Source: Escherichia phage fDHCT2. From it: a stretch of DNA of 64,000 nucleotides. Every line of letters starts with the position of its first letter. Within the stretch, counting starts at the first letter, position 1. Made by a program: the position numbers and the translations under genes. The DNA lies in sequence record OR427838.1. The stretch is one strand, 5' to 3'. The notes beneath the pieces are model-generated. The model was not told the DNA's origin, did not search any database, and saw only the letters and a list, made by a program, of their open reading frames with translations. Shown here in pieces: positions 12,174-29,944 of the stretch.

Positions 12174-12407
12174 TTAAACTACTGGGGTCGGTGTGAACAT
12201 TGCTGCGTTCTTGGTCTTCCAGTCAGCAGCATCAGTCACTACAGTAGTATAGGCTGCAACGGCCGAAGGGAAAGTCTGATAATGAGAATCTGCAATACGG
12301 TGCTCGTTTGAATAAATCTCAAACGGGACAGACACTTCAACACCTTTAACTTCTTTACCTTCACCAGCTGGATGCGTAAAGGTTTTGATATTAACGAAAC
12401 CACCCAT
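12174..12407 (-). CDS. soc: small outer capsid protein Soc
   Basis: 77 aa; ...YVNIKTF...HYQTFPS... resembles remembered T4 Soc; late promoter upstream. Confidence 0.85.
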   Translation of the reverse strand: MGGFVNIKTFTHPAGEGKEVKGVEVSVPFEIYSNEHRIADSHYQTFPSAVAAYTTVVTDAADWKTKNAAMFTPTPVV

Positions 12408-12438
12408 AATAAACTCCTTTGTTGTTTAATTACAGGTG

Positions 12439-12446
12439 TATTTATA
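12439..12446 (-). promoter_or_regulatory. late promoter TATAAATA (soc)
   Basis: minus TATAAATA about 30 nt upstream of soc ATG, then RBS AAGGAG. Confidence 0.65.
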
Positions 12447-12448
12447 AC

Positions 12449-12970
12449 TTAATAACCTCGGTCTTGACGAGCAAAGTTCTCGGCATTTTTCAGATAATAC
12501 AGTTTAAAGATTTCTTCAGCAGTCAGACCAAGACCTTGGAACATATTCAGAACAAAGTGCAGAATATCAATCATTTCGAATTTAATTTCGAGCTGGTCTT
12601 CAGGAGAGAGTTCGTCAATACGACGATTACGGAATTCGGCATGTTGTGCCTTCCACGGCTTCCACACACTGGATGCGGCTTTCTCACCATTACTCATACC
12701 GCCAAGAGAAGTCAGAAGTTCACGGAATTCATCATCAATATAATCTTTCTGGTTGCGAAGCCAATCAACAACTTGACCTGCTGTAGCTAGTTCATCAGGA
12801 TTGGTGTTGAATTCTGATTTTTCAGTAGCCAAACGAACCTGTAATGATTTCTGCATATCAAGCATAACCTGCAGAGGGTCTTTATCTTCGTGAATCAGAG
12901 CATTAAAATAAGCTTCTTCAGCTTTATCAACACCTGCAATAAGTTGTGAGCATTCGTTAAAGTGTGCCAT
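12449..12970 (-). CDS. 56: dCTP pyrophosphatase gp56
   Basis: start at MAHFNEC (12970, RBS AAGGAAAAA); near-collinear with remembered T4 gp56 (...PLQVMLDMQ...DEFRELLTSLG...). Confidence 0.95.
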   Translation of the reverse strand: MAHFNECSQLIAGVDKAEEAYFNALIHEDKDPLQVMLDMQKSLQVRLATEKSEFNTNPDELATAGQVVDWLRNQKDYIDDEFRELLTSLGGMSNGEKAASSVWKPWKAQHAEFRNRRIDELSPEDQLEIKFEMIDILHFVLNMFQGLGLTAEEIFKLYYLKNAENFARQDRGY

Positions 12971-13060
12971 TATATTTTTCCTTTTCAATTCATTAGTAAG
13001 TTAGATAATTATAAACTGTTAGATTAAAGCGAATAAATATTAATTTAACAGGAGGATAAC

Positions 13061-13261
13061 ATGGGTAGTATTTTTTACCAAATCTGGAAATTGTCCGAAA
13101 AGAAAGACAAGAAAATGATGTTAGGTTTTCTTGCGCTAGACGTGTTCCTTTGGAATCTTCTAGTAGTCCCTGTAGCCGCTAGCCAAGGGATAATTTTACC
13201 AGCGGTTACAATGGAACACGTATTAAGCATAATTGGATTCTTTAGCGGAGTTCCTGCCTAA
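13061..13261 (+). CDS. small hydrophobic protein, plus strand
   Basis: 66 aa; canonical RBS ACAGGAGGATAAC-ATG; no convincing minus ORF in this gap. Confidence 0.45.
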   Translation: MGSIFYQIWKLSEKKDKKMMLGFLALDVFLWNLLVVPVAASQGIILPAVTMEHVLSIIGFFSGVPA

Positions 13262-14286
13262 ATTTTGGAATATTTAGAAAGTCTCATTTTGGCCATTAGA
13301 CCTTGGGCTATATTAGCTTTCATATATGTCAGTACATCATTTATATCAGCTTTATCTTTCATAATCATATCATTTATATCTTTAGAAGGCCATGGAGCCT
13401 TGTCCCAGAATAGAACCCTTTCGCCAGCATCAACTAATCGTTGCATACGCTTAATTGTGTCAGGATGGCGGGGTTCATTGTCCATTACCCAGGCACGAGT
13501 TTCTTTACATGGAACTATAGCCAAATCTAACGACCCACCAGTAATTGCTATTGCATTCGGTACGAATAATGAATCGATAGGACCTTCCATTACCCAGACC
13601 AATTGACGTTCGTCGACTGTATCCATTCCATATATTTTTGTAGCTTGGTCATGAGCTTTTATTGTAATATATTTTTGTGGAGCATCTTTACGCAAGGCTC
13701 GACCCTGAAAACTTTCTATTTGTTTATCCTTATTGAAAATAGGAATAACCAAACGAGGCTCAGGCATTTCTTTAGAATAGGTCCCTGGATTCACAGAGTT
13801 CACCAATGCCGGCCATTCTTTAGTAAACCACAGCCGGTTCCATTTGTTTTCAGGAATGCAACGTAGTGTTACATATTTGATAATAGGATGGTCCTTCGGC
13901 ATTCTATCTAATCGTTCACAGAAATTAAGCTTTTCGATGACAGGCATCTTAGCTTTAATTTTTTCAGATATCTCCACCTTAGGTGCAGCTTGTCTCCCGA
14001 ACGATTGCTCTTTATGTTTCTCAAGAATATATTCTCGATATAAATCCGGCTCATATTCGTATAGATACTTCTTAATTCCTGCTGAATAGTCGCAGTTAAA
14101 ACAGTGCAGCATTACGGAGCCATCATTAGCCGGATAGGCCCAAAAACGAGCTTTGTTCTCATCTTTTTGGGAGTCGCCACATACACGACAACGACAGTTT
14201 AATTTAAAATCACTACCAGTTACTTGTCTGAATTTAGGTTGGTAATTCAAGGCACGTACAGCAAATTCTCTATCGACATATGACAT
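13258..14286 (-). CDS. 61: DNA primase gp61
   Basis: 342 aa; zinc ribbon CRCRVCGD...HCFNC; matches remembered T4 gp61 length and motifs. Confidence 0.95.
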   Translation of the reverse strand: MSYVDREFAVRALNYQPKFRQVTGSDFKLNCRCRVCGDSQKDENKARFWAYPANDGSVMLHCFNCDYSAGIKKYLYEYEPDLYREYILEKHKEQSFGRQAAPKVEISEKIKAKMPVIEKLNFCERLDRMPKDHPIIKYVTLRCIPENKWNRLWFTKEWPALVNSVNPGTYSKEMPEPRLVIPIFNKDKQIESFQGRALRKDAPQKYITIKAHDQATKIYGMDTVDERQLVWVMEGPIDSLFVPNAIAITGGSLDLAIVPCKETRAWVMDNEPRHPDTIKRMQRLVDAGERVLFWDKAPWPSKDINDMIMKDKADINDVLTYMKANIAQGLMAKMRLSKYSKI

Positions 14287-14324
14287 TATTTTTCCTTGGG
14301 CTCTAAATTAATAGAGCCATTATA

Positions 14325-14486
14325 TCATTCGTTTTCGGATTTTTCTTTACGCTTTTTAGATGGGATTTGTTCAGGCCCTTTATTGACGACTGCGCCTGAG
14401 GTAGTTCCGGAGGCAATAGCAGTAGGATTACCACCTGCATCGCCTGCGACCATATCTTCGTTCATAACTTCTTTAAAAGATTTCAT
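14325..14486 (-). CDS. small lysine-rich protein (53 aa, hand-called) behind a late promoter
   Basis: MKSFKEVMNEDMVAGDAGGNPTAIASG...KKRKEKSENE; RBS GGAG. Confidence 0.45.
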   Translation of the reverse strand: MKSFKEVMNEDMVAGDAGGNPTAIASGTTSGAVVNKGPEQIPSKKRKEKSENE

Positions 14487-14499
14487 AGGCTCCTGGCCT

Positions 14500-14507
14500 T
14501 ATTTATA
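14500..14507 (-). promoter_or_regulatory. late promoter TATAAATA
   Basis: minus TATAAATA 13 nt upstream of ATG 14486. Confidence 0.5.
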
Positions 14508-16460: not shown

Positions 16461-16778
16461 TTAGATTTCCTCGCAGAAGGCCCATTCAGCATGATAAACC
16501 GTAGCGCCTTTAGTATCATTTAAACAAACCACATCCACCGGAGCAATTACACGATAAAGACGAGGTTCTCCTCCCACCGAACGAGCAGCTCGTCCAGCAT
16601 AAATCTTAGCCAAACCAATGTCCTCAGTAAAGAACACACGATTCAAGTTTTTCTTACGACCCGTTTCAGACAGAACTCCTGTTTCCTCAGGAGGACAAAG
16701 CATATTACCAATATTAGCAACACTACAACTTCCATGGTAATACACTTTATATTCCGCTTTACAGTCGATGGTTTTCAT
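16461..16778 (-). CDS. hypothetical protein
   Basis: track start 16790 is TTG; ATG 16778 with RBS GGAGAACAAA; motifs YYHGS and RLYRV. Confidence 0.5.
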   Translation of the reverse strand: MKTIDCKAEYKVYYHGSCSVANIGNMLCPPEETGVLSETGRKKNLNRVFFTEDIGLAKIYAGRAARSVGGEPRLYRVIAPVDVVCLNDTKGATVYHAEWAFCEEI

Positions 16779-16862: not shown

Positions 16863-18300
16863 AAAATTTGATAGATGCTGCTAAATCATCTAAATCGCTT
16901 CTATTAACACGCGACTGGCGATTGACCTCTGCTTGGCGGTTCATTTCACCTGTGGCCTCACGAACGGTGTTCACTGGGCCTGGGTTGGAATCGTCTTCAA
17001 CTTCGTACCAACGTTGATTTCCTTTCTTAACACCAATCTTAAATTTGTTGTAGTAGCTCTTATCACCATAACGAGATTTAAGCTGCTTAACCATCTGCAT
17101 ACCCATCTGAGCAAATTCTTCTGTCTCGACCACACCCAACATGAAGTCTGCGGTATGTGCAATACCAAAGGATTCAGCAATATCAGCCATATCGATTTCG
17201 GCTGCAACGTTCGCGCCACGAGTAGTCTGGGCTGCAGTCCACAGCAATAATTTCTTCTCTACTGCAAGTCCACGTAGTTCTTCAGCAACCATCTTAATCA
17301 ATCCGTAACTGTTTTCAGAGAAAACTTTCGTACGAGACGATGCACAGATGGCCAAGTAGTCAACGATAACGACCTGTGGGACAAAGTTTTGTTTGAGCTT
17401 GTATTCGTTTAATAATGCACGGAATGTATCGGCATTCGCACCGCCGGTAGGATACTGTTTAATCTTTAAACGACCTAAGGTAGCAGTTGAACGCCATTTA
17501 TCCATCTTAGCTTTATATTCAGGCCACGAGACATGACCATCATCGATATCATCCAGTGATACATCCAGAAGGTTGGCATCGATACGCTTAGCACATACTT
17601 CCTCTGCCATCTCCATGGAGATATAAAGAACATCGTAACCCGATTGAAGGTAATCAGCAGCCAATGAACAAAGACCAAGAGACTTACCTACGTTTGTTCC
17701 TGCTAACAATACGTTTTCAGTACCAAACTCGGCGCCGCCCTTGGTAATCTTATTCAGAATATTAAGACGGAATGGAACCTTACGTGCTTTATCGGAATAA
17801 CTTTTGAATCGTTCTTCATAGTCATCCATCCAGTCATGACCTAATTCAGAATCGAAACAAATCGATAATGCATCACGCATGATATCTGGAATAGCACCAA
17901 TACCTGGAAGTTTTCTATTTTGTTGCTCAACCGGAAGGTCGGCATTAGTTTGGATTTCAATGATTTTTGAAGTTGCATTATACATCGCTGCTTTCTGAAC
18001 GTATTTCTCCGTCTCTTTAACCAACCATTCTTGGTCTTCAGGTCCGGCATTCAGCGAACTTAAAAGCTCTTTAGCGCCTTGGTGTTCAACTTCTGAAAGC
18101 GTACTGTTATCTAATGCAATGCTCAGCGCGTTCTTAGAAGGCACTGCATTATATTCATTGACATGTTTTTTAATTTCTTTGAAAAGGGTCTTTGCAGGAC
18201 CCTGGTCAAAATAAGAATCATTCATATAAGGCCAGACCTTAGTGAAATAATCACTATTGCCTAACAGTTGAGCCAAAATAGTTTCTACCACTTCCACCAC
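16861..18300 (-). CDS. 41: replicative DNA helicase gp41
   Basis: 479 aa; Walker A GTNVGKS; DnaB-like; T4 synteny. Confidence 0.95.
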   Translation of the reverse strand: MVEVVETILAQLLGNSDYFTKVWPYMNDSYFDQGPAKTLFKEIKKHVNEYNAVPSKNALSIALDNSTLSEVEHQGAKELLSSLNAGPEDQEWLVKETEKYVQKAAMYNATSKIIEIQTNADLPVEQQNRKLPGIGAIPDIMRDALSICFDSELGHDWMDDYEERFKSYSDKARKVPFRLNILNKITKGGAEFGTENVLLAGTNVGKSLGLCSLAADYLQSGYDVLYISMEMAEEVCAKRIDANLLDVSLDDIDDGHVSWPEYKAKMDKWRSTATLGRLKIKQYPTGGANADTFRALLNEYKLKQNFVPQVVIVDYLAICASSRTKVFSENSYGLIKMVAEELRGLAVEKKLLLWTAAQTTRGANVAAEIDMADIAESFGIAHTADFMLGVVETEEFAQMGMQMVKQLKSRYGDKSYYNKFKIGVKKGNQRWYEVEDDSNPGPVNTVREATGEMNRQAEVNRQSRVNRSDLDDLAASIKF

Positions 18301-18614: not shown

Positions 18615-19788
18615 GATCGCTCACAAAATTCATATTTTCTAAATCGTTTTCTATATCAGCGGCGCTTTGGGTATTTCCACCTAATTTAACAGCAACGTTC
18701 TTAGAGACACGAGAGTTAATAAGGTCGTTCACCGCATCGTCAACTTCTTTAATAGAATTAATTGCACCGAGCTTATACTTATTCTCGATTGCTTCACGGA
18801 ACGGAGCATGTTTAAACAGCGGTCCCCAGAACTCGACACAATCGGTAGCTTTAGCACGCCATGATTTTTCTTCTTGAACCATTTCACCTGTGGTTTCGTC
18901 AAGGAATGCACGATTATACCAACCAGCTTTAGGTTTCACAACAAAGCCAATATCAGTAGCCATTTCAAGCAATCCACTGAATGGGTCGATACCACCTTCA
19001 AAGTTCACAGTAATTGGGAACGTTGATTTCTCTTTAACAGTACGAGATTTTTCGGCCTTCAGGGTGAAGTCATAACCAGTGAGCTCGGTGCCATCTTTAA
19101 CCTGACGTTTAGAGATAAAGAATACGGTAGAAGCAGAGTACAGAATACCGGTACCGCCACCCATAATCTCTTTAGGATACATTCCACCAATTTCCATAGC
19201 CGTATGGTTAATTGCTACACAAGGGATATCCTTGATGGTCAGATAAGGTGTTACGATACGGAACAGAGATTTCAGTGACTTAGCACGGGTCATATCACCT
19301 ACAACTTTCTCGTTCAAAGCATCTTCGGTTTCTTTCTTAGAAGCGGTGTTACCGATGGAGTCGATAAAGATAATAACCTTTTCACCACGAGTAATTTCTT
19401 CTAATTGGTTGGTCATGTCAACCTTCAGTTGTTCAACTGACTGGATTGGCGTATGAACCACACGTTCCAGGTCAACACCCATTGAACGGAAATAAGATTC
19501 TGAAGCACCGAACTCAGAGTCATAGAACAAGCAAATTGCGTCTGGATATTTCTTCATATATGCTGCAACCATGGTAAGTCCAAACAATGTTTTAAAGTGT
19601 TTAGATGGAGCAGCAAAGATTGTCAAACCTGATTGTAAGCCTGCATTCAACGCACCACCCAATGCAATATTCAGCATAGGGATACGAGTAGGAACTTCGT
19701 CACGACCATTAAACAATTTGGATTTGGTCAGGTCGGCAGTCATTTTAGAAGTAGAAGCTTTAATCAAACGGGATTTTAAATCAGACAT
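18607..19788 (-). CDS. uvsX: UvsX RecA-like recombinase
   Basis: 393 aa; MSDLKSRLIKASTSK... near-identical to remembered T4 UvsX N-terminus. Confidence 0.95.
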   Translation of the reverse strand: MSDLKSRLIKASTSKMTADLTKSKLFNGRDEVPTRIPMLNIALGGALNAGLQSGLTIFAAPSKHFKTLFGLTMVAAYMKKYPDAICLFYDSEFGASESYFRSMGVDLERVVHTPIQSVEQLKVDMTNQLEEITRGEKVIIFIDSIGNTASKKETEDALNEKVVGDMTRAKSLKSLFRIVTPYLTIKDIPCVAINHTAMEIGGMYPKEIMGGGTGILYSASTVFFISKRQVKDGTELTGYDFTLKAEKSRTVKEKSTFPITVNFEGGIDPFSGLLEMATDIGFVVKPKAGWYNRAFLDETTGEMVQEEKSWRAKATDCVEFWGPLFKHAPFREAIENKYKLGAINSIKEVDDAVNDLINSRVSKNVAVKLGGNTQSAADIENDLENMNFVSDHD

Positions 19789-19840
19789 TATATTTTTCCA
19801 TAGGCATCATTATATTTTACTCACGTTTTAAGATAGGGTA

Positions 19841-19870
19841 ATTATATCACTTCACATTTACAGCGTTAAA
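19841..19870 (-). promoter_or_regulatory. possible weak promoter upstream of uvsX
   Basis: minus GTGATATAAT then TACCCTATCTTAA; -35 only CTTTAA-like. Confidence 0.3.
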
Positions 19871-20759
19871 GGACCACGTCCTCATAACTTGGCATTTCGT
19901 GCTCAGAATGGATATGGGCGCCGAAATAAATGAATTCAGCTAGACCAGGATGGAATACTAAACCTGGGTTCTCATGATAAATGATATGAGGTCTTGATTT
20001 CAGAATCTGATAATATTCAACCTTACTTGGTTTGAATTTAATAATCTCTACATCAGGACGATAGTCTTCACGCTTAAATGAATCATTCGGGTCGGTGATA
20101 TAAAGACGAGCACCTTCAGCCGCAGCTTGGTCTACAACTCTTTCGAATTGATAACACTTATCCGAAATACGGAATGGGTGGAAAATACCATCAATTTTAA
20201 TAGGCGCTAGACCTTCAGAGTAACGCTCAATTACTGCCGGATTAATTACCTTTTGGTCTACAAAAATCTTATCAGAGGACGCACCTCGTGACACCAGGAC
20301 GTCTTTCTGACATTGGTTCAAGACTGTAGTATAAATCGAACGTTCAACTGAAGACACGTCGGTATCAATAAACTCATCGATGTAATAACGAGGAACTTCA
20401 GGGTCCATTGTAATGTTAAAGTTGAATTGTACAGTCTGAGCACCATCATAACCAGTGATATCGGTTACTAATCCCGAGCAGTCATAGTATTCGATTAACG
20501 AATCAACGACAAACTCATTTTCGGACCAAAAATGTTTACGGGTCTCATAAGCATTTTCTTTATACCAAAGCGGCACGAAATTCAGTTCAGGAAATAATTC
20601 AATACATTCTTTGATATCGCTCGAATTTCTAGGATAAGCCAGATAATCACCTGGGCAAGCACGGTTTAAATGGAGTTGGAAATTACCGTCCTTAAGGACG
20701 GCATATTCACCTGTTTCGTAACTACGCATACTGAAAATAGGAACGATAAACAAACTCAT
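19866..20759 (-). CDS. hypothetical protein at the T4 bgt position (candidate transferase)
   Basis: 297 aa; no resemblance to remembered T4 beta-glucosyltransferase; function inferred from context only. Confidence 0.6.
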   Translation of the reverse strand: MSLFIVPIFSMRSYETGEYAVLKDGNFQLHLNRACPGDYLAYPRNSSDIKECIELFPELNFVPLWYKENAYETRKHFWSENEFVVDSLIEYYDCSGLVTDITGYDGAQTVQFNFNITMDPEVPRYYIDEFIDTDVSSVERSIYTTVLNQCQKDVLVSRGASSDKIFVDQKVINPAVIERYSEGLAPIKIDGIFHPFRISDKCYQFERVVDQAAAEGARLYITDPNDSFKREDYRPDVEIIKFKPSKVEYYQILKSRPHIIYHENPGLVFHPGLAEFIYFGAHIHSEHEMPSYEDVVL

Positions 20760-21454
20760 TTCAGGAATCCTCGAACGTAGTCAAAATCACGTTCAAATAC
20801 GTGTGCACTAACCATAGTATGGGAATACGTACCCAGACCAACACCACACTGTTCAGCAATAAAGGCCATCAGTTTACCCTGCAGATAGAAATCCAGCTGC
20901 ATAACGATAGCACAGTTCTGTGAACGCATATGAGTATGTGCATACAGACGTCCATCACGAATATAATATGTTACCGAATCGGTACATGGATATTCTAGGG
21001 ATTCGTCAGAATCAAGGAGGGCTTGGTCTTGTTCTTGGAGAATTTGGAACACAACTCGTCTCGAGTTAGGCTTTTCTTTAAGCTCTTTAAGTAGGGCTGG
21101 GAGTTGGGCCACAATTCGAGGTCCATAGAAAGTGTTGAAGTTTGCAGGCAATACGTCACTTTTCGGCTTATCAATGAACTTAGCAACATTAGGGTATTCC
21201 TTAAATGCTTCGGCAGCGTCAGTACCACCAGAAATCATAAATTTCCAAAAGGATTCGGCATATTCATAACTGATACGATTGATACGTGGGTCGGTGAATT
21301 TATAGGTGCTGGCATCCAGTACTTCTATAGAAGCAGAACCAATTTCATAACAACGTCCGATACGAGAATCAACTGCAAACTGTGGAGCTTCCAGGATTTC
21401 TTCGTTCATTTGTTTAAATGCATTTTCAAAACTAACAGCGGTAATGTGTTTCAT
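20756..21454 (-). CDS. 42: pyrimidine hydroxymethylase, thymidylate-synthase fold (gp42-like)
   Basis: 232 aa; ...PCTDSVTYYIRDGRLYAHTHMRSQN... aligns with T4 gp42 ...MCTNTVQYLIRD...NMRSND... Confidence 0.8.
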   Translation of the reverse strand: MKHITAVSFENAFKQMNEEILEAPQFAVDSRIGRCYEIGSASIEVLDASTYKFTDPRINRISYEYAESFWKFMISGGTDAAEAFKEYPNVAKFIDKPKSDVLPANFNTFYGPRIVAQLPALLKELKEKPNSRRVVFQILQEQDQALLDSDESLEYPCTDSVTYYIRDGRLYAHTHMRSQNCAIVMQLDFYLQGKLMAFIAEQCGVGLGTYSHTMVSAHVFERDFDYVRGFLK

Positions 21455-21987
21455 TTATTCACCTTATTTTCAATATATTCGTTCAGACGTTTTAATTCTA
21501 CCATATCAACATTAAGCAAATTATTATGGCCGTCATGATTTAAGATTTTAAACACGTTTTCAAAACATGTTTCGTATTGCTGGATAGTTAGGTTGAACTC
21601 ATCTTTGGTTAATTTAATAAGGTCATCTTCGAAGTCTTCATCTAATGGATTACGGGTTAAAATAACCTCGATAACGTTAAATTCGGATTTAAACCCTTTC
21701 CAATCTTCCAGTTCTACATAAGGGTCCATTTCACCACGAAGGAATCCTGAGTAAACAATATTACTTGGATAACCACGGTCAAGGATGTAAACGAAATTAG
21801 GGTCTAAAAACTTATACAACGTCTCGACTAAAGCCTTATCATTATCAGTTCCTAATGAAATACACTTGCCATTAATCTTTTTAGGAAAATCAATAAGGCG
21901 GTATTTCTTATTGGATAACAGATTTTTAATTAAAGTGGACTTCCCGGAATTATCTGGGCCGTCTATAACAATGATTTTTGGATTCAT
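21451..21987 (-). CDS. P-loop kinase (thymidylate-kinase-like)
   Basis: 178 aa; Walker A IVIDGPDNSGKSTL. Confidence 0.7.
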   Translation of the reverse strand: MNPKIIVIDGPDNSGKSTLIKNLLSNKKYRLIDFPKKINGKCISLGTDNDKALVETLYKFLDPNFVYILDRGYPSNIVYSGFLRGEMDPYVELEDWKGFKSEFNVIEVILTRNPLDEDFEDDLIKLTKDEFNLTIQQYETCFENVFKILNHDGHNNLLNVDMVELKRLNEYIENKVNK

Positions 21988-22382
21988 GGATGATAGGCCT
22001 TATAACTATCAAGAGTTCCTTCACGAACCAATTCTTTAAAGTGGTCTGGACGGATTGCTCGGTCATCGATGATAAAAGTATAACTCGGCTTGTGTGTAAG
22101 CAAATTGTGATATTTCAATCCAATTTTTTCAAGGTTCTTAACCAATGCAGGAACTACTTCAACCAAGATTCGACCTGGGCCACATGAAGTCATGCCACGG
22201 GCAGTGAATAATGTAATCTCGTACCCTTCATCATAAAGCTTATTAATCATGGACACCATTTCGGTGTCCGGTTTAAAGTTCTCATAATCACGGTCATGGT
22301 TCCAAATCGTGATTGTGTTATCGATATCAAAACATAAATGTGGTTTATTTTCTACTCGATGCGACATTAAATTTTCTTCCAT
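21984..22382 (-). CDS. small HAD-superfamily phosphatase
   Basis: 132 aa; motif I FDIDNTIT. Confidence 0.65.
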   Translation of the reverse strand: MEENLMSHRVENKPHLCFDIDNTITIWNHDRDYENFKPDTEMVSMINKLYDEGYEITLFTARGMTSCGPGRILVEVVPALVKNLEKIGLKYHNLLTHKPSYTFIIDDRAIRPDHFKELVREGTLDSYKAYHP

Positions 22383-24040
22383 TGTTTGTGGAGTTCAGTA
22401 GAACCTGTAGGTTTATATTTTACACCAGTTTCCTGGTCAAGCAAAACCCACTTATCAGGACAACGAGTAATAATTTGAGCCGTGATAGGGTCACGAACTT
22501 CATCGACAAATTCACCAGTAATAAGCTTACGCTTACGAGGATGCCGCTTCAGCAGCACACTCAGTTGGTACAAACCGTTATAATAAGCACCCAGAGCTTT
22601 CAGAGGGTTATTCTTAAAGTAACCTGCCAGCGCCATCCAAATAACAGCAATCCAGAGCTTGTGCTTAAATGTGCACATAGGAATATCGTCTAAAGGCATA
22701 ACCTTTTCAATATCAACGAATACACGAGTTCCATTACGAGTTAATCCACCCCATAGAGGGTCTGAGTTAAATTTGTCATAGCCATCGATAGAATAAAGCA
22801 CCTTAGCTTCATCATAAATCGCAGGGCCTTTAGAACTATTACCGAAATAACCACGTGGGTCGATGATTTTAATATCACCTTCGTCCGACAGCATAATATT
22901 ACTGTAGTGCGGGTCACCATGAATAAGTTGGTACGGTTCTTTATGTTCAGACAGAATTTCTAATGCATGGCGGAGAAGTTTTTCAGGGTCGCCTACTTTG
23001 AAATCGTTGACATGGGTAATGCCCTGTGGAGCAAAGCCTTCAATCAATCCGGCAATAGAAGCATTACGAATAAGGACCTTGTCCAATACTTCTTTCTTAA
23101 CATCGGAATACCATTGTTCATCGGACGGATTATCAATAGTTCCACCAAATGAACGTAATGCACTAATGACCTTATAAACCATGAGGACTTTAGTTTCTTT
23201 GGACATAAACCGGTAGGCATCTGCCATGGTCCGACCAAAGATACGTTCCATTTTAATGAATTCGCCTGGAGAAAAGTCTACAATGCTAGGAACGAATTCA
23301 GAATCAATAGAATTATACCAATTGATTTCTTTAGATTGAATTTCTTTACCTAAATCGTTAGTTGGTACTTTAATAGCCAGATTCTCAGTGAACTCTAATT
23401 TATTAAATTCACGGTTAATTTCAGAATCTTCATGGGCCTTAGCCAGTTTCAATTTGTCACCGACATCAACCACAAAGTCCAGCTTACGTTCAGTCAAATG
23501 GACCATCGAATCCAGGTTGTCTGCAAGGTCTTCGCCATAATTAGAACGGTCGAAACCTGTCCAATTAGCCACCTGATACAAACCAACCACACCACCGCCA
23601 GTACCAATTTCACGCAAGTACGGTTCTTCAAATGTAAAACGACAGTCGGTCCCATAGGTATAACAGTAGTCGTTATCCCACTCAACTTTATGACCTTCAG
23701 GAATAATATCACACCAGTTAAACAAGACATTATGCCCAATGATATCTTCAGCAATGCAATCGATAGCATGAGCTGAACCATTAGCAACATCAACGTTACG
23801 AATAGTGAATTTAGGCTTATCACCAGTAATCATGTTAATGGATTTGATATAGCCTTTAACGAGGTCGTTAAATTTGCTGTGAATAACCAGAATAATTTCA
23901 TCTGATTGGTTACTATACAAATCATACAAATGCTTTAATACCGTATGTTGTTTGTAGTTAACCAATACCTTCGGGATTTCGTTAGTAATTGGATACAACC
24001 GTGAGCCAAGACCCGCGCCTAAAATAACAACCTTTTTCAT
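22367..24040 (-). CDS. bifunctional sugar-1-phosphate nucleotidyltransferase / kinase
   Basis: start at MKKVVILGAGLGSRLYPIT (RBS GAGGAA); C-terminal LIHGDPHYSNIML...IIDPRGY kinase motifs. Confidence 0.8.
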   Translation of the reverse strand: MKKVVILGAGLGSRLYPITNEIPKVLVNYKQHTVLKHLYDLYSNQSDEIILVIHSKFNDLVKGYIKSINMITGDKPKFTIRNVDVANGSAHAIDCIAEDIIGHNVLFNWCDIIPEGHKVEWDNDYCYTYGTDCRFTFEEPYLREIGTGGGVVGLYQVANWTGFDRSNYGEDLADNLDSMVHLTERKLDFVVDVGDKLKLAKAHEDSEINREFNKLEFTENLAIKVPTNDLGKEIQSKEINWYNSIDSEFVPSIVDFSPGEFIKMERIFGRTMADAYRFMSKETKVLMVYKVISALRSFGGTIDNPSDEQWYSDVKKEVLDKVLIRNASIAGLIEGFAPQGITHVNDFKVGDPEKLLRHALEILSEHKEPYQLIHGDPHYSNIMLSDEGDIKIIDPRGYFGNSSKGPAIYDEAKVLYSIDGYDKFNSDPLWGGLTRNGTRVFVDIEKVMPLDDIPMCTFKHKLWIAVIWMALAGYFKNNPLKALGAYYNGLYQLSVLLKRHPRKRKLITGEFVDEVRDPITAQIITRCPDKWVLLDQETGVKYKPTGSTELHKQWKKI

Positions 24041-24100
24041 TATCTGTTCCTCAAGTGAATGTAGGTACATTATACACTATTTTTAATAAATTGGTATTGC

Positions 24101-24601
24101 TTAAATCTTATCTTTACCGATTTCAATACACTGTTCTATTGCCGCCGGTACTTTGGTCTTGAGCTTATCGATTTGTTTCTTATAATCACGAGCTTTACCG
24201 AAGCTCTCGGTTTCGAGCATTTCGTAATAACGAGCCTCGTGGATGGAAATCTGTAGATTGATATGGTTTACGCACATCGCATACAGTTTCTGCTTTTTGT
24301 ACAAATCATCTTGACGCTTCATTTCTGCCTGGTGTTTGGCTAGTACCGCTTCACGCTTAGACTCTTGTTCACGTTGGAATTCGATTTCCCTTTGAGCATA
24401 TTTTGCACAGTTATTACCGCATTGATTATTAGCTCGGGTATACACAAGTCCGGAACCAGCACGGAATTTCATTTCGCCATCGAATTGTTTCTGTTCAGCT
24501 GCGATACGAGCTTTACCAACTTCATCAGCCGAAACTGCATCGCCATATTGGACCGCGCAACCTGATAGGAGCATACTCATTGCGATAATTAACTTTTTCA
24601 T
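24101..24601 (-). CDS. lipoprotein
   Basis: 166 aa; MKKLIIAMSMLLSGC lipobox. Confidence 0.6.
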   Translation of the reverse strand: MKKLIIAMSMLLSGCAVQYGDAVSADEVGKARIAAEQKQFDGEMKFRAGSGLVYTRANNQCGNNCAKYAQREIEFQREQESKREAVLAKHQAEMKRQDDLYKKQKLYAMCVNHINLQISIHEARYYEMLETESFGKARDYKKQIDKLKTKVPAAIEQCIEIGKDKI

Positions 24602-24608
24602 AATATCC

Positions 24609-24746
24609 TCAATTAAAACAGTTATACTTAATTTGTGCTATAAGAATAATCCATCCAATGATGAGTGTCGGAATCATTGGTGGAATTGCCACTGCCCAAT
24701 AAACGGTAAAGGCAGCCATTATAAGAAATAAAATAATTATCTTCAT
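24609..24746 (-). CDS. small membrane peptide (45 aa, hand-called)
   Basis: MKIIILFLIMAAFTVYWAVAIPPMIPTLIIGWIILIAQ...; ATG overlaps imm stop. Confidence 0.4.
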   Translation of the reverse strand: MKIIILFLIMAAFTVYWAVAIPPMIPTLIIGWIILIAQIKYNCFN

Positions 24747-24979
24747 TGTTTAACGATAATGATTTGTGCGTTTGATTTACGTTCAGCGACGATAGCCCAG
24801 ATTAAAGCCACTACCCAACCAATCATCGTCCACCCTAACAGGAGATTAAGGAAGAAAATTCCTACATTACTACGAGTGCCTCGCAGAAGGGCTAAAATCC
24901 ATGGTAAAAAGTAACCGATGAACATAATAACCAGAGAACCAAATCCTAAAACACCAGCACTAACGATTAAAGCTTCCAT
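24743..24979 (-). CDS. imm: superinfection immunity protein Imm
   Basis: 78 aa, two TM helices, ...LLLGWTMIGWVVALIWA...; T4 position before gene 43. Confidence 0.7.
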   Translation of the reverse strand: MEALIVSAGVLGFGSLVIMFIGYFLPWILALLRGTRSNVGIFFLNLLLGWTMIGWVVALIWAIVAERKSNAQIIIVKQ

Positions 24980-25009
24980 TGTAATTTCCTCATGTAGTTG
25001 ATAGGAAGG

Positions 25010-25039
25010 ATACTACCACGTTCCTTGTGGTATGTAAAC
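25010..25039 (-). promoter_or_regulatory. T4-type early promoter (imm)
   Basis: minus GTTTAC (25034-25039), 18 nt, TAGTAT, CTATCAAC. Confidence 0.6.
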
Positions 25040-25041
25040 AC

Positions 25042-27753
25042 TTAAAAGTCGAACATATCAAATAATGTTGCTTTTTTCTCGTAGTCGATTTTAGCAGACT
25101 CAGTAAAACCAGTCAGAGGCTTGATAAAGGTCTTTTGGAACAGTACGTTGTAGTCCATCCAACGGAGGACTTGGTCACGAATCTGAATCGGAAGTTCAAT
25201 ACCTGACGGCCACGCCATACAAGCTTCACCAAAAGGGTTGCCTTCTTTAAGCGGCAGCACATATACCTTTTCACCATCAACGATACGAGGCATGGTCAAA
25301 TCACCTGCAGAAGCACGCATGTAAGCTAAGCAACCTTTGATGTGATACGGACATTTAGAACCAGGGAAACCGCCTTCATTATATTTCTCGATGTTGTTAG
25401 CACTGGATACTGCAGCAATGCTTACATAGTTTAGTTCGTTAAATTCCTTATTAAACTGTTTGAAATACTCTTGCAAAGAGGCCTCGCCTTCTTGAAGCAT
25501 ACGACGGATACATTCTTTCAGTGCTTTCTGAACTGCTTTAGGTGTACTTGATTTCTGGGTTTCGAGGCCCATGATTTTCAAGTGTGGTTCGGCATAACGA
25601 GTACCTTCCATGTCCCAAACGTTCAGTGCATAACGTTTCTTGCCTGTCCAGAATCCACCAAGACCTTTAGAACCAAGTGGAGGACCAGCGATAGCTTCTC
25701 GGTCCATGAACATCAAGTGCTGTTTATTGTTCATGTATTCGCACATCTCACGGAAGCCTGCATCAATAGCCGGTTCCATACGTTCACGTGCAAATTTATC
25801 TAAGAAATCAACCCAGTGGTTAGTATCACGGAATTTATCTTCGCCTACTTTATTGATGATTGCGTCAGCCTTAACATAAATGGAGTCAGTATCACCATAG
25901 AGCACGAACTTCTGGTTTTCAGTCTTGCACACACCATTCAGATATTCGTTAACCTTACGTTCAATCCATTGGAGGGCCATTTGACCAAACAATGTGATTG
26001 CAGTCGCGTTCCTGAGGTCATAGTAACGGAACCATACGTTACCAAGTGCACCATAAAGGGAGTTGATAAGCAACTTACGGTTAATCTGAGCAGTCATACC
26101 TGCGACTTCAGTACGTTCGGCTTTGAACAACATTTCTTTTAAAGAAGATGCTGACAATTTTTTAATCTGAGCTTTGATTTCGTCAGAGAAGTCGAAACGA
26201 TAATCGATATCCAGTGGGCTATCAACAGACGGATTAGGATTTTCTAATGCTTCCTTAATTAACTCACCATTACGTTGAGCTGCAAGCATATAACCTTTAT
26301 GTTCTTTACGCTGTAAGAACACCTTCGTGATTTCTGTAGGAATCACGCCATCACGGTCTTTATAGTACATCATGCCGTTAGGAGAGCAACTGTAGGTGTC
26401 GCTAGGACGCGGAGCAGTTCCGGCAATATATTCATGTATCGGTGCGTTAGCGAATGTCCCTGCGATGGTCTCTGGGCTTATATTCACTTGTCGAATGATA
26501 CTCGGGTACAGAGATGTAAGGTCGAAACTCATTACATATTTGTACGCGTTAGGAATAGGTTCCTTAACGAAAGCACCTGGATAAGGTTGAACCGCATGCG
26601 ATTTGGCCTGAGGAATAACTTTACCCTGTTCTTTAAGGCTATTAAAGATAATAGCGTCCCAAGTCTTAATTGGACTGAACACCGACTGAATCTGCATCTT
26701 GGCATAGTAACCCATGTCCAGACTAAGAAGAATGAACTGGCGTTTCATATCAATCTGCACAACACGATATACGTCGATAATGTTATAGGAAATATATCGT
26801 TGGTGGTTCGTCTCACGTAACTTGGAGATAGGACCATCATATTTCAACTTACCTACTTTCAATTCATATTCAGAAACATAATCCAGAGAATAAGAAGGCT
26901 GGTTGGTAAAGCTGAATTTTTTATAAAGGTCGATATAATCCAGAACAGAGATACCGAACAGTGTAATAATTTCACGAACACCGTACATATTCTCGATAAC
27001 TTTAACACGAGTCTTACGATGCGGGCTTAATCGCTTAGCAGTGTTCTCACCAAACAGATTTTTCAGACGGTTATAAACGTATGGCACGTCAAATGATTCA
27101 ACGTTCCATCCAGTCAAAATCACAGGAGTTTTCTGTTGCCAGAAATTCAGATACTCAAGCATCATTTCTTCTTCAGAATTAAACGGAAGATAAACGATTT
27201 TGTCAATGATTTCTTGTGGAACTTCGTCACCACCTTCGTCTTGGAGTTTCTCAGCGATTTTAATCGACCACTCTTCGACCGTACCATAAGGTGAAACTAA
27301 AAGGTCAAATACATAGAATTTATCATCAATCGAGTCGTAGTGAGTAATGGCATCGATAGGATGTTTAGCCTGAGCAGGTTCAGGGAATCCATCAGGGGAT
27401 GTTACCTCGATGTCGAAGTTAGCAATACGAATCTTGGAAGAATCATACTTGATTTCTTTACGATAGGTATCAGACAAATAGGCTAATTTATAGTCGTCCA
27501 TACCAAGGGCTTCGAGACCCATATCGTCCATGCGCTTCATCCACTGAGAAGCATCGCGCATTGAATTGAATTCTTTCTTAACACAGCCCTTACCGTAGAT
27601 GTCAATATATTTTACGGCTTGCTCTGGGTTAGCATGCATAAACATTGTAGGCTTGTATGGAACTTCACGACTACGTTCGTTACCATTTTTATCGATGTAA
27701 CGTTCGAGAATATTATCACCGATTTGTTCGACTGTCAAATAGAATTCTTGCAT
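25042..27753 (-). CDS. 43: DNA polymerase gp43
   Basis: start at MQEFYLTVEQ (27753, RBS AAGGAAA); collinear with remembered T4 gp43 to ...LFDMFDF. Confidence 0.97.
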   Translation of the reverse strand: MQEFYLTVEQIGDNILERYIDKNGNERSREVPYKPTMFMHANPEQAVKYIDIYGKGCVKKEFNSMRDASQWMKRMDDMGLEALGMDDYKLAYLSDTYRKEIKYDSSKIRIANFDIEVTSPDGFPEPAQAKHPIDAITHYDSIDDKFYVFDLLVSPYGTVEEWSIKIAEKLQDEGGDEVPQEIIDKIVYLPFNSEEEMMLEYLNFWQQKTPVILTGWNVESFDVPYVYNRLKNLFGENTAKRLSPHRKTRVKVIENMYGVREIITLFGISVLDYIDLYKKFSFTNQPSYSLDYVSEYELKVGKLKYDGPISKLRETNHQRYISYNIIDVYRVVQIDMKRQFILLSLDMGYYAKMQIQSVFSPIKTWDAIIFNSLKEQGKVIPQAKSHAVQPYPGAFVKEPIPNAYKYVMSFDLTSLYPSIIRQVNISPETIAGTFANAPIHEYIAGTAPRPSDTYSCSPNGMMYYKDRDGVIPTEITKVFLQRKEHKGYMLAAQRNGELIKEALENPNPSVDSPLDIDYRFDFSDEIKAQIKKLSASSLKEMLFKAERTEVAGMTAQINRKLLINSLYGALGNVWFRYYDLRNATAITLFGQMALQWIERKVNEYLNGVCKTENQKFVLYGDTDSIYVKADAIINKVGEDKFRDTNHWVDFLDKFARERMEPAIDAGFREMCEYMNNKQHLMFMDREAIAGPPLGSKGLGGFWTGKKRYALNVWDMEGTRYAEPHLKIMGLETQKSSTPKAVQKALKECIRRMLQEGEASLQEYFKQFNKEFNELNYVSIAAVSSANNIEKYNEGGFPGSKCPYHIKGCLAYMRASAGDLTMPRIVDGEKVYVLPLKEGNPFGEACMAWPSGIELPIQIRDQVLRWMDYNVLFQKTFIKPLTGFTESAKIDYEKKATLFDMFDF

Positions 27754-27811
27754 TTCATTTCCTTTATAGACGAGTGATTGTCTTTTGTTTGTTGATGAAT
27801 CATTATACTCC

Positions 27812-27833
27812 AAAAAGGGACCGAAGTCCCTTT
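27812..27833 (-). terminator. hairpin terminator upstream of gene 43
   Basis: minus AAAGGGAC-TTCG-GTCCCTTTTT, followed by GGAGTATAATG. Confidence 0.6.
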
Positions 27834-27835
27834 GC

Positions 27836-28051
27836 TTAAATTTCTATTGTTTGACGTTTAATGGTTGAATTACCATCTTCGTCTTTAGTTTTAATCATAG
27901 CCTGGAAGACTTTCTGACCTGGATGTAGCAACTTATGGAGTTCTTTTTGAAATTCTATTTGGAGCTCTTCGGAAAGGTCAAAAACAGTTTGAGTTGGTGA
28001 AAGTCCGTATACCTCTTTAAGACGTTCACACATTTCAATTTCAAGAATCAT
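27836..28051 (-). CDS. hypothetical small protein
   Basis: track ORF trimmed to ATG 28051 to avoid overlap with regA; weak RBS. Confidence 0.4.
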   Translation of the reverse strand: MILEIEMCERLKEVYGLSPTQTVFDLSEELQIEFQKELHKLLHPGQKVFQAMIKTKDEDGNSTIKRQTIEI

Positions 28052-28052
28052 A

Positions 28053-28415
28053 TTAATTACCGATGGTATACTTAGACAGTAGTTCCCAGTCATTTTTCTG
28101 CTTAAAGGAAATGACACGGAAATTATTAGTGATTTCGAACAGCTCAGAGTCGTCTACGATATCAATCAGTCCCCAGTCCTTAAGAAGCTGGGCGATAGAA
28201 TCACGGCGTTGGTAGTCTTCACCATCGATATCTACCTGGCGACCGTCCATACGCAACATCTCTTTAAAGTGGACAATATAATACCGTCCTTGCTTTTGCA
28301 AAATGTGGCAGGATTGATATAGTTTCTTTTCTTTATTATTAGCGATACCCATACGAGTCAGGGTCTCTTTCACTTTTAGGAAGTCTTCAGGTTGCTTCAG
28401 AGTAATTTCAATCAT
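28053..28415 (-). CDS. regA: translational repressor RegA
   Basis: 120 aa; MIEITLKQPEDFLKVKETLTRMGIANNKEK... near-identical to remembered T4 RegA. Confidence 0.95.
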   Translation of the reverse strand: MIEITLKQPEDFLKVKETLTRMGIANNKEKKLYQSCHILQKQGRYYIVHFKEMLRMDGRQVDIDGEDYQRRDSIAQLLKDWGLIDIVDDSELFEITNNFRVISFKQKNDWELLSKYTIGN

Positions 28416-28421
28416 TTTAAT

Positions 28422-28994
28422 TTACCATTCCAATGCTTTCTTTTTCAAGTCTTTTTGTTCTTTCACATTTTTAGTTACGGATTTCAGGAACTCGTCCGTA
28501 ACCAACCCTTTCATCTTCTTAAGCATCGCCGGAAGATGGCCTTTAATTTTATAAGTCTCGAGATAACGATAAGCGTCATCATTATTAATTGAATGGTATT
28601 TCATCAATAAACGAGTAATAAAAACTACACTAACTTCATCATCATGGGCCTTAGCCCATTTACCAAATCTCTTACCCTTAGGAACAGCATGTAAAAGATA
28701 GTTGAAGTGACTTTGGTCGTCAAGTTTAAGACAGTTAACCATCGCGGCTTGCATAATGCAATCTACGTGTTGGCTCAAACTATTATCTAGCCAAAATTGA
28801 TTATAGTTTTCTGATTGAGCCAAGTTACGTTGGTTCTTACCATACGTGATGTCGTTCATAATGGCAAACAGTTCGTTTTCAGCCTTTTCTTTAAATGAAT
28901 CGGCTAAGGCTTGAATAGCAGCGTCGTTACGTTGTTTCCAAGCAACTTCATGTTCATTCAGTTCAACGTCATCATCAAAAAGACTTATAGCCAT
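28422..28994 (-). CDS. 62: clamp loader small subunit gp62
   Basis: 190 aa; T4 synteny regA-62-44-45. Confidence 0.9.
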   Translation of the reverse strand: MAISLFDDDVELNEHEVAWKQRNDAAIQALADSFKEKAENELFAIMNDITYGKNQRNLAQSENYNQFWLDNSLSQHVDCIMQAAMVNCLKLDDQSHFNYLLHAVPKGKRFGKWAKAHDDEVSVVFITRLLMKYHSINNDDAYRYLETYKIKGHLPAMLKKMKGLVTDEFLKSVTKNVKEQKDLKKKALEW

Positions 28995-29944
28995 TGGAGC
29001 TCCAGAGCAAGTTGGATAAACAGATAAGTCAGGTGAATTTCTGGGTTAGCAGCAATACCGTGGTATTGGTTATTTTCACCGACAATTTCGTACATTCTAA
29101 CAATGCTTGGCCCAGGCAATTTACCATAGAGTTCGTTAGCCAGCGACATAATAAAGTTGGAATAATCATTGACATGACGTGGAGCTAATGCACGGAGTTC
29201 TTTAAAGTTTTTATCTTTCAGTGCGGCCACTACTTCATCAATAGGCGAATTGGTATTCATTACAATACTCAAAATGCCTGTATCGATTTTACCACTTGAG
29301 GAATAACGGTCTAGTTGGTTAATTGTTTTACGGAAGTCAGGGAAGTTTTGTTTAACTAAAGCAGCAATAACTTTAAGGTCTTCGACTTCGATATTTTCGT
29401 TTTTACAAATTGCTACTGCACGATGAATCATTTCTTTCATCATGGCAGTTTGGTCAGCTGGAGTGGCTTCACCAAATTTAATTACACGGCAACGAGATTG
29501 AAGTGGACCGATAATACCATCAATATTGTTTGCTGTAATAATTACAGAACAGTTTGAGGAATAGGCCTCTAAGAATGAACGAAGGTGGCGTTGAGCTTCA
29601 GCAACACCAGCACGGTCGAATTCGTCAATAACAATTACCTTACGTTTACCTTCGATAGATTTAGAAGATGCAAAACGAGTAAGTTCGTTACGAACGAAAT
29701 CAATACGGCAGTCAGAACCGTTAACAAACAACATGTCTGAATTTGTATCAGCACACAATGCTTTAGCTACGGTAGTTTTACCTGTGCCTGGTGAAGCAGA
29801 GACTAGGATAATGTTAGGGATTAGGCCCTTATTAACAATTGCTTGGAGAGTTTCTTTATCATGAGCAGGCAGAATACATTCAGATAAAGTACCTGGACGA
29901 TATTTCTGTTCGAACATGAATTCATTATTATTTACTGTAAGCAT
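28985..29944 (-). CDS. 44: clamp loader ATPase gp44
   Basis: 319 aa; Walker A SASPGTGKTT, Walker B VIVIDEFD. Confidence 0.95.
   Translation of the reverse strand: MLTVNNNEFMFEQKYRPGTLSECILPAHDKETLQAIVNKGLIPNIILVSASPGTGKTTVAKALCADTNSDMLFVNGSDCRIDFVRNELTRFASSKSIEGKRKVIVIDEFDRAGVAEAQRHLRSFLEAYSSNCSVIITANNIDGIIGPLQSRCRVIKFGEATPADQTAMMKEMIHRAVAICKNENIEVEDLKVIAALVKQNFPDFRKTINQLDRYSSSGKIDTGILSIVMNTNSPIDEVVAALKDKNFKELRALAPRHVNDYSNFIMSLANELYGKLPGPSIVRMYEIVGENNQYHGIAANPEIHLTYLFIQLALELQWL

Follow-up and report, generated by a model that had tools for sequence, protein, structure and literature searches.

The window analyzed here is a 64,000-nucleotide (64-kb) stretch of the genome of Escherichia phage fDHCT2 (sequence record OR427838.1), a Dhakavirus and T4-type phage resembling JS98 and WG01. 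Between gene 56, encoding the dCTPase, and gene 61, encoding the DNA primase, the window carries a small plus-strand open reading frame (ORF) of 66 amino acids (aa). From its conservation across related phages there is little doubt that this ORF is a genuine protein-coding gene, namely the Dhakavirus ortholog of T4 dam.1. The locus holds the following features:

12449..12970, minus strand: gene 56 (dCTPase), left neighbor of the small ORF; start MAHFNEC..., as annotated in WG01.
13008..13034, minus strand: candidate MotA-box-like middle promoter of gene 56 (ATTCGCTTTA, 11 nt, TATAAT); consensus match only.
13032..13039, plus strand: predicted late promoter motif of the T4 type, AATAAATA; 21 nt separate its end from the ATG of the small ORF.
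13050-13055, plus strand: Shine-Dalgarno sequence AGGAGG, 5 nt before the same ATG.
13061..13261, plus strand: coding sequence of the small ORF, 66 aa, ATG start; member of PHROG 2024 and almost certainly orthologous to T4 dam.1.
13258..13261: stop codons of the small ORF and of primase gene 61, convergent and overlapping by 4 nt.
13258..14286, minus strand: gene 61 (DNA primase), right neighbor, convergent with the small ORF.

The ORF had been singled out in an earlier note made from the letters of the window (here called the sequence-only reading), and the arrangement described there was found as stated. The gap between genes 56 and 61, given as about 290 bp, measures 287 bp (12971-13257) and is mostly filled by the small ORF, which follows the canonical ribosome-binding site (RBS) attributed to it. 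Its orientation is indeed opposite to that of its surroundings, as the annotation of the near-identical phage WG01 places all neighbors of the ORF on the minus strand. The sole minus-strand ORF within the gap (51 aa, 13075..13230) is without a Shine-Dalgarno site, again as described, and the product is hydrophobic, with a Kyte-Doolittle mean of 2.05 over its best 19-residue segment (residues 20-38). The reported absence of dam was likewise borne out: a tblastn search of the 64-kb window with T4 Dam gave a best E-value of 0.68. No paralog of the small protein was found elsewhere in the window. At the nucleotide level, the region 12400-14300 is 95% identical to IME540 and 93-95% identical to JS98, WG01, QL01 and others.

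The sequence-only reading had further proposed that the phage differs from T4 at this locus, the ORF occupying the place where T4 would carry oriA, gene 69 and dam. The synteny comparison with T4-like genomes suggested in the same place upholds this difference for dam and segF, but not for the ORF itself. In the T4 reference, gene 56 is followed by dam, a 310-bp unannotated gap and gene 61, and this gap holds a plus-strand ORF of likewise 66 aa (17738-17938), with an RBS of the same type (AAGGAGG), the same 4-nt stop overlap with gene 61 and an upstream ATAAATA motif. The small ORF does not replace what T4 carries; T4 shares it. While absent from the NC_000866 annotation, the T4 ORF is named dam.1 in T4T (ADJ39749.1, HM137666), and hundreds of Tequatrovirus and Mosigvirus records list it as a hypothetical protein. 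Concerning the other two elements, the T4 record annotates oriA at 16763, inside the 5′ end of gene 56, a position that does not coincide with that of the ORF (corresponding to T4 17738-17938), and the current T4 annotation contains no gene 69.

T4 Dam.1 and the window protein have the W-N...P-x-A...G...P motif in common (core sequence LLWNFILSPVAIAHGVNIPVVT in T4, FLWNLLVVPVAASQGIILPAVT in the window), and both match phrog_2024 over their full length, the window protein with E 9.1e-28 (residues 1-64 against positions 1-64 of the 65-position profile) and the T4 counterpart end to end with E 5e-31. In contrast, their N-terminal thirds belong to different sub-types: that of T4 (MVQKLMALVNAIKG...) is common to T4, Mosigvirus and Gaprivervirus, whereas that of the window protein (MGSIFYQIWKL...) is common to the Dhaka, Marfa, Kanagawa and Gelderland group. 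A BLASTP alignment of the two proteins covers only 25 residues, at 40% identity. The left neighbors differ as well, being dam in T4 and gene 56 in the window.

The family is widespread. In tblastn searches, the window protein retrieved homologs in 294 phage records, and the T4 version, standing for the T4-type branch of the family, did so in 699. A 100% identical protein is encoded by Salmonella phage vB_SalD_ABTNLS3, and the WG01 copy is annotated as a hypothetical protein (YP_009323228.1). Identity to the window protein declines from 94-100% within Dhakavirus through 77% (Klebsiella phage Marfa), ~70% (Gaprivervirus), 59% (Enterobacter phage ZX14) and 57% (Salmonella phage CGG4-1) to ~30-35% for Jiaodavirus, Moonvirus and other Gelderlandvirus. 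Every genome inspected has the homolog as a plus-strand ORF of 63-74 aa directly downstream of, and convergent with, gene 61, an arrangement seen in at least nine genera (Dhakavirus, Marfavirus, Gaprivervirus, Kanagawavirus, Gelderlandvirus, Jiaodavirus, Moonvirus, Mosigvirus and Tequatrovirus). Besides T4, the 4-nt stop overlap recurs in WG01, Marfa, CF1 and moskry; it extends to 24 nt in ZX14, and JD18 and CGG4-1 have a small gap instead. When IMG/VR was scanned with a primase alignment and a hidden Markov model (HMM) of the small protein was then applied to the 46 primase loci obtained, the small gene was found beside the primase in 32 of them.

The codons of the small ORF are under purifying selection. 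Among 31 family representatives, the plus frame is open throughout and other frames are broken in some; the antisense (minus) frame is interrupted in several relatives. By Nei-Gojobori counts, the proportions of synonymous (pS) and nonsynonymous (pN) differences between the window and Marfa are 0.76 and 0.12, respectively. Between genera, synonymous sites are saturated (pS 0.75-0.93 vs. pN 0.12-0.33), and within genera the ratio of nonsynonymous to synonymous substitution (dN/dS) is 0.12-0.25, with values of 0.12-0.19 in the genus of the window. Columns W31, N32 and P37 of the family are invariant and A39, G43 and P47 nearly so; the window protein has all of these residues and, with them, the full W-N...P-x-A...G-x3-P core. 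A conserved non-coding origin, named by the sequence-only reading as the alternative to a gene, is refuted by this codon-level selection.

Signals for expression are likewise shared across the family. The motif AATAAATA upstream of the ORF is a variant of TATAAATA with A at the first position. TATAAATA is the T4 late promoter, and the A(-13) variant, the commonest, occurs at 9 of 50 listed T4 sites (PMC2988020). Within the window, ATAAATA is depleted about threefold (9 copies vs. 26.0 ± 5.2 expected; positions 1046, 12445, 13033, 14506, 16237, 40041, 50858, 56519 and 57824), which fits selection against spurious late promoters. Most copies lie 11-32 nt upstream of ORF starts, and the motif is also present upstream of soc, lysozyme gene e, endonuclease VII gene 49 and a 61.1 homolog. 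In T4, soc, e and 49 are late or late-promoter genes. As for the homologs of the small gene, 26 of the 31 representatives, spanning many genera, carry (N)ATAAATA, differing from TATAAATA at one position at most, 20-41 nt ahead of the ATG; the match to TATAAATA is perfect in Marfa, in ZX14 and in a group of phages of 175 kb. Of the remaining five, two are second copies, without a promoter, of a tandem pair, and three have ATTAAATA. All 31 representatives have GGAGG, GGAG or GGTGG at the Shine-Dalgarno position. Judged from these motifs, the small gene is very likely transcribed late, from a gp55-type promoter. Crude consensus scans of 12300-14400 revealed no excess of sigma-70-like sites and no terminator-like site on either strand.

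The MotA-like box of gene 56 and the late motif of the small ORF face away from each other, overlapping by 3 nt on opposite strands. The box has one mismatch to the MotA promoter consensus, (a/t)3TGCTT(t/c)A-N11-13-TAnnnT. Since the gene 56 transcript is said to serve as the primer at T4 oriA, this putative promoter at 13008-13034 could be the equivalent origin promoter. A second late-type motif nearby concerns another small gene: a perfect TATAAATA on the minus strand (14499-14506), amid the early-gene cluster and pointing towards primase gene 61, ends 13 nt upstream of the ATG of the 53-aa 61.1 homolog (ORF 14325-14486) and may be a late promoter for 61.1.

The predicted protein can be divided into three segments:

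13061..13114, plus strand: residues 1-18, basic amphipathic N-terminal segment (MGSIFYQIWKLSEKKDKK), predicted cytoplasmic.
13115..13183, plus strand: residues 19-41, single strong predicted transmembrane helix containing the invariant W31-N32 and P37 and the nearly invariant A39.
13184..13258, plus strand: residues 42-66, conserved G43-x3-P47 turn and then a short hydrophobic helix bearing the acidic residue E52; location predicted to be periplasmic or interfacial.

The first 20 residues have a net charge of +3 and a hydrophobic moment of 1.26, and the basic cluster ahead of the transmembrane helix is kept across the family. The C-terminal 24 residues (43-66) are moderately hydrophobic, with a net charge of -1. 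An AlphaFold2 (AF2) model built from a 19-sequence alignment (mean predicted local distance difference test score, pLDDT, of 68) places helices at residues 3-10, 14-41 (block pLDDT 78-82) and 51-62 and a loop at 42-50, the C-terminal helix of ~12 residues being, we infer, too short to cross the bilayer. Under the positive-inside rule, the basic N-terminus argues for an N-in orientation, and the protein is probably a bitopic inner-membrane protein, N-in and C-out, with an interfacial C-terminal helix. The invariant Trp-Asn pair within the predicted helix suggests helix-helix association. Scans of the window, T4 and Gaprivervirus proteins against Pfam and NCBIfam assigned no family, and a Foldseek search of the AF2 model against BFVD returned family members as the only significant matches; two '3TM holin' entries at E 6.7-8.7 are not significant. 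Sequence matches in the PDB were limited to acetylcholine-receptor transmembrane helices (E 0.27-0.6) and are due to chance.

Distant relatives of the protein lie outside the T4-type phages. A profile search of 1.84 billion representative proteins yielded only 18 clusters, and the distant ones among them derive from the late regions of ~20-50-kb siphovirus-type contigs and enterobacterial prophages. By alignment search, a version of 83-112 aa is common in the genomes of Escherichia, Klebsiella, Serratia, Pectobacterium and Yersinia, where it is always named 'hypothetical protein', the RefSeq E. coli copy included. With hhalign, the T4-type family and a 96-aa prophage family align over the transmembrane helix, turn and tail at 97.7% probability (E 1.6e-12). 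The homologous part is the C-terminal 43 residues, and the prophage proteins (e.g. WP_000579857.1 of E. coli, encoded beside mipA) likewise contain a [WY]-N...P...G..LP..P-[LV]-[DE] motif. Unlike the window protein, the prophage proteins have an additional N-terminal amphipathic or hydrophobic helix and a polar linker, and their genes are not adjacent to a primase but belong to a late region, close to a tail-tip gene, to genes for a T4-type lysozyme and a SegE-like endonuclease, and to p180/p109.

The usual prophage order is tail-tip gene, an 88-95-aa protein, T4-type lysozyme, SegE-like endonuclease, p180 or p186, p103 or p109, the homolog and then accessory (moron-type) genes; the 88-95-aa protein has a transmembrane segment and a coiled coil and weakly matches Rz-like spanin, holin and XhlA families. 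In a second arrangement, endonuclease VII is followed by the homolog, p180, p109 and lysozyme. A T4-type lysozyme lies 0.5-1.5 kb from the homolog in 13 of 16 such loci and in all four E. coli loci, many of these loci being closely related, so that they amount to about three independent arrangements. The recurrent top Pfam match of the prophage relatives is PF11351 (GTA_holin_3TM), collinear over ~75 residues, and against the prophage profile a cyanophage protein with the label 'GTA-like holin' reaches 28 bits. Pfam describes PF11351 as a holin for the release of gene-transfer agents (GTAs). Its members resemble the window protein in being small membrane proteins of late phage regions, but the window protein has one clear transmembrane helix, not three.

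Two observations on the phages and prophages involved may be added here. The E. coli siphovirus-type prophage beside mipA, often degraded and riddled with insertion sequences, carries several T4-like genes together, i.e. the e-type lysozyme, the SegE-like GIY-YIG endonuclease and the PHROG 2024 relative, with endonuclease VII in related contigs. Their co-occurrence suggests gene exchange between T4-type phages and this prophage lineage. The record of Escherichia phage DCP80 (PQ671644.1; region 18671-29111 considered here), 141 kb long and classed as Gaprivervirus, includes a siphovirus-type block encoding a 1,252-aa protein, endonuclease VII, p180, p109 and an endolysin, and two places in it match the small protein; it looks like a chimeric or mixed assembly.

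Taking the above together, we favor the reading that the ORF is a real gene for a late membrane protein, with a role linked to lysis as the best guess for its function, and put this explanation as a whole at roughly 55%. In such a scheme, the gp55-type promoter at AATAAATA (13032-13039) would start transcription, restricting expression to the time after DNA replication, and the late transcript of the small gene would run antisense into gene 61. The 66-aa product would enter the inner membrane and span it once by its transmembrane helix, leaving the basic N-terminus in the cytoplasm and a C-terminal tail of ~25 residues on the periplasmic side. The invariant W-N pair, the P-x-A element and the G-x3-P turn could then form an interaction surface, either for self-association or for a partner membrane protein. 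The weakest step is the last, in which the protein would take part in what happens to the envelope late in infection, most likely as an accessory protein that is holin-like or affects the timing of lysis.

No other function is as likely as such an accessory role, be it in lysis or in late envelope events, although it is a tentative one; lysis comes to the fore because the distant prophage relatives occupy the lysozyme region of a late operon and weakly resemble GTA-type holins. The connection to holins is a lead, not a result. A broader version, in which dam.1/PHROG 2024 would be an unrecognized late membrane component of T-even lysis, acting as a holin-like protein or a modulator of holin or lysis timing and distantly related to GTA holins, appears doubtful. 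On this broader version, the component would be shared with a lineage of enterobacterial prophages, where it may be the actual holin. In the T4-type phages the small protein is not the main holin, as these have holin T.

How far does the protein resemble known small membrane proteins? Small holins and pinholins, such as S68 of phage 21 and gp17.5 of T7, are ~65-70 aa long, and a polar residue within a transmembrane helix would favor oligomerization. The window protein is like them in size, membrane location, the polar residue in its transmembrane helix and predicted late expression. At least one transmembrane domain, as expected of a holin, is predicted here (residues 20-38; AF2 helix 14-41). 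It differs from them in that a dual-start motif and a charged hydrophilic C-terminal tail are lacking, and in that its gene is not adjacent to the endolysin gene in T4-type genomes, where holin T is already present. With the type I toxin peptides Hok, TisB and Ldr it shares the character of a small hydrophobic single-helix peptide encoded opposite a transcribed strand. Unlike these, it is a predicted phage late gene with a strong RBS, and encodes a longer product (66 aa) with a conserved, predicted periplasmic tail. Crude scans of 12300-14400 and the search of Rfam revealed no dedicated antisense RNA gene or terminator.

Several observations count against a lysis-linked late gene. T is the essential T4 holin, and T4 t mutants do not lyse, so the small protein cannot suffice as a holin. 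Holins typically have a charged hydrophilic C-terminal tail, whereas here the charge is at the N-terminus. Lysozyme gene e starts near 57.8 kb, ~44.5 kb away in the window, and even among the prophage relatives endolysin proximity is loose (0.5-1.5 kb). There, the homolog is linked most tightly to p180, p109 and the tail-tip region, which a role in the tail or in entry would fit equally well. The matches of the prophage relatives to PF11351 (11.6-20.5 bits) stay below the gathering score of 24.8 bits, and neither the window protein (at E ≤ 10) nor any of 19 T4-type members matches this model. The names 'holin family protein' and 'Holin' in two records (EAWsc9 and OE5505) are without support from any Pfam or NCBIfam model. 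Nothing recognizable stands at the position of the small gene in 14 of the 46 T4-type primase loci, CC31-like phages included, from which it follows that the gene is probably dispensable. A literature search covering T4 ribosome profiling, unannotated T4 genes and dam.1 turned up no transcript, protein or phenotype data for the family. Finally, the ICP1 holin TeaA, which is experimentally supported, has been tied to PF11351 by remote homology (PMC7182436). In the presumed TeaA interval of ICP1 (ORF135-139), hmmscan found no match to PF11351, and there was no similarity to the family profile; with the ORF of TeaA not identified within that interval, its link to the PF11351 lead is not established, and TeaA was set aside as an anchor.

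Among the alternatives, superinfection exclusion fares best, although we consider it unlikely. Here, the small inner-membrane protein would hinder DNA injection or envelope damage by incoming phages, following a logic comparable to that of T4 Imm or of prophage-encoded exclusion proteins. A small, predicted bitopic membrane protein would suit this task, and the prophage relatives are found at the very prophage end, downstream of the tail-tip gene and by moron-type genes (DUF3800, RelA_SpoT, DUF2188), in the kind of place, i.e. prophage ends beside moron-type genes, where exclusion genes often lie. However, the conserved late-promoter motif predicts late-only expression, whereas the T4 exclusion genes imm and sp are expressed early, and searches of Pfam, NCBIfam and the PDB gave no similarity to known exclusion proteins.

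Slightly less likely again is a part in tail or virion assembly, with the small protein serving as a membrane-associated helper of p180 and p109 and the lysozyme being an incidental neighbor. The homolog, p180 and p109 are kept together as a trio in both gene orders (homolog-p180-p109 and p180-p109-homolog), beside the tail-tip gene, and a late promoter suits a morphogenetic gene. Yet the T4-type phages have the small gene without a detectable p180 or p109. A tblastn search with p188 retrieved a single record, that of DCP80, with its siphovirus-type gene order in a record classed as Gaprivervirus. The matches of p180 to phrog_1924 'minor tail protein' point in the same direction as the trio, but they are weak (E 7e-8 to 7e-4), and this label derives from them only.

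It is also conceivable, if improbable, that the function resides in the RNA and that the peptide is secondary: a late plus-strand transcript, being antisense to early read-through transcripts and to the 3′ end of the primase mRNA, would lead to their shutdown or processing late in infection. The late-promoter motif is directed into gene 61, the stop codons overlap by 4 nt with no intrinsic terminator-like site on either strand of 12300-14400, and the tight convergence with gene 61 is kept in most T4-type genera; T4 late transcripts of either polarity have been documented (PMC2988020). What this cannot account for is the conservation, as amino acids are under strong purifying selection while synonymous sites are saturated. 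In addition, the homologs of the siphovirus-type prophages have no primase nearby, and JD18 and CGG4-1 have no overlap with gene 61. An additional antisense effect may exist alongside the protein.

That the ORF is no gene at all but a chance frame in a conserved non-coding control region (an origin or promoter, like T4 oriA) can be all but dismissed, for although the gap does hold control elements (the late-promoter motif and the MotA-like middle promoter of gene 56) and the curated JS98, IME08 and T4 reference records leave the ORF unannotated, the plus frame alone stays open in 31 of 31 representatives, dN/dS within genera is 0.12-0.25 with pN of 0.12-0.3 at saturated synonymous sites between genera, protein homology extends to relatives whose DNA no longer aligns, T4 oriA is annotated within gene 56 and outside this gap, and an Rfam scan of 12400-14400 found no family above chance.

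As a sequence feature, the late membrane-protein gene that we favor is ordinary, and it is already cataloged: hundreds of T4-type genomes list a hypothetical protein, T4T has it as dam.1, and it forms PHROG 2024 of 'unknown function'. Its interest lies elsewhere. Despite clear purifying selection and a conserved late-promoter motif, the gene is missing from the annotations of the T4 reference (NC_000866/AF158101), JS98 and IME08, and genome-wide T4 studies built on those annotations will miss it. It is also one of few late-strand genes within the early replication-gene region. This late-strand position, the invariant polar motif of the predicted membrane protein and the relatives in prophage lysozyme regions make it a well-defined candidate for a role in lysis timing or envelope events. 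The lysis system of T4 is considered well understood; were the lysis reading true, its textbook form (T, RI, RIII, E and the spanins) would be without one conserved player, which the T4 reference leaves unannotated.

Where the small ORF is annotated, its product name is at times that of another protein. It is called 'dCTP pyrophosphatase' in CGG4-1, SEA1, dhabil and dhaeg, 'DNA packaging ATPase' in MY02, SAKp28 and VAC36, and 'thymidylate synthase' in SHP1 and 04086.

Gene 56 and the small ORF are separated by a variable cassette site, an insertion hot spot. It contains dam in T4, mobE in IME08 and extra hypothetical genes in Marfa, ZX14 and CF1, and it is empty in the window as well as in Mosigvirus and Jiaodavirus, both of which have the order gene 56, small ORF (plus strand), gene 61 without dam. 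Marfa, dhabil and dhaeg each have two ORFs labelled dCTP pyrophosphatase, one of which, in dhabil and dhaeg, is the small ORF; in these three phages, an insertion may have split gene 56 or may be flanked by partial duplicates of it. A change on the other side of the small gene was seen in one IMG/VR locus (L057, 1501-2579), whose primase matches that of the window only at residues 1-296 (82% identity). The sequence 3′ of primase residue 296 differs and contains no small ORF, and there may have been an insertion or rearrangement at the primase 3′ end.

In Gaprivervirus (VR25, VR26 and relatives), the small gene is present as two tandem paralogs (1295-1701 in VR26), such that this genus has both N-terminal sub-types side by side. 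The T4-type copy comes first and has its own ATAAATA, and the Dhaka-type copy follows 8 nt downstream with an RBS only. At one Gaprivervirus locus (L024), the second copy is an N-terminally truncated ORF of 46 aa.

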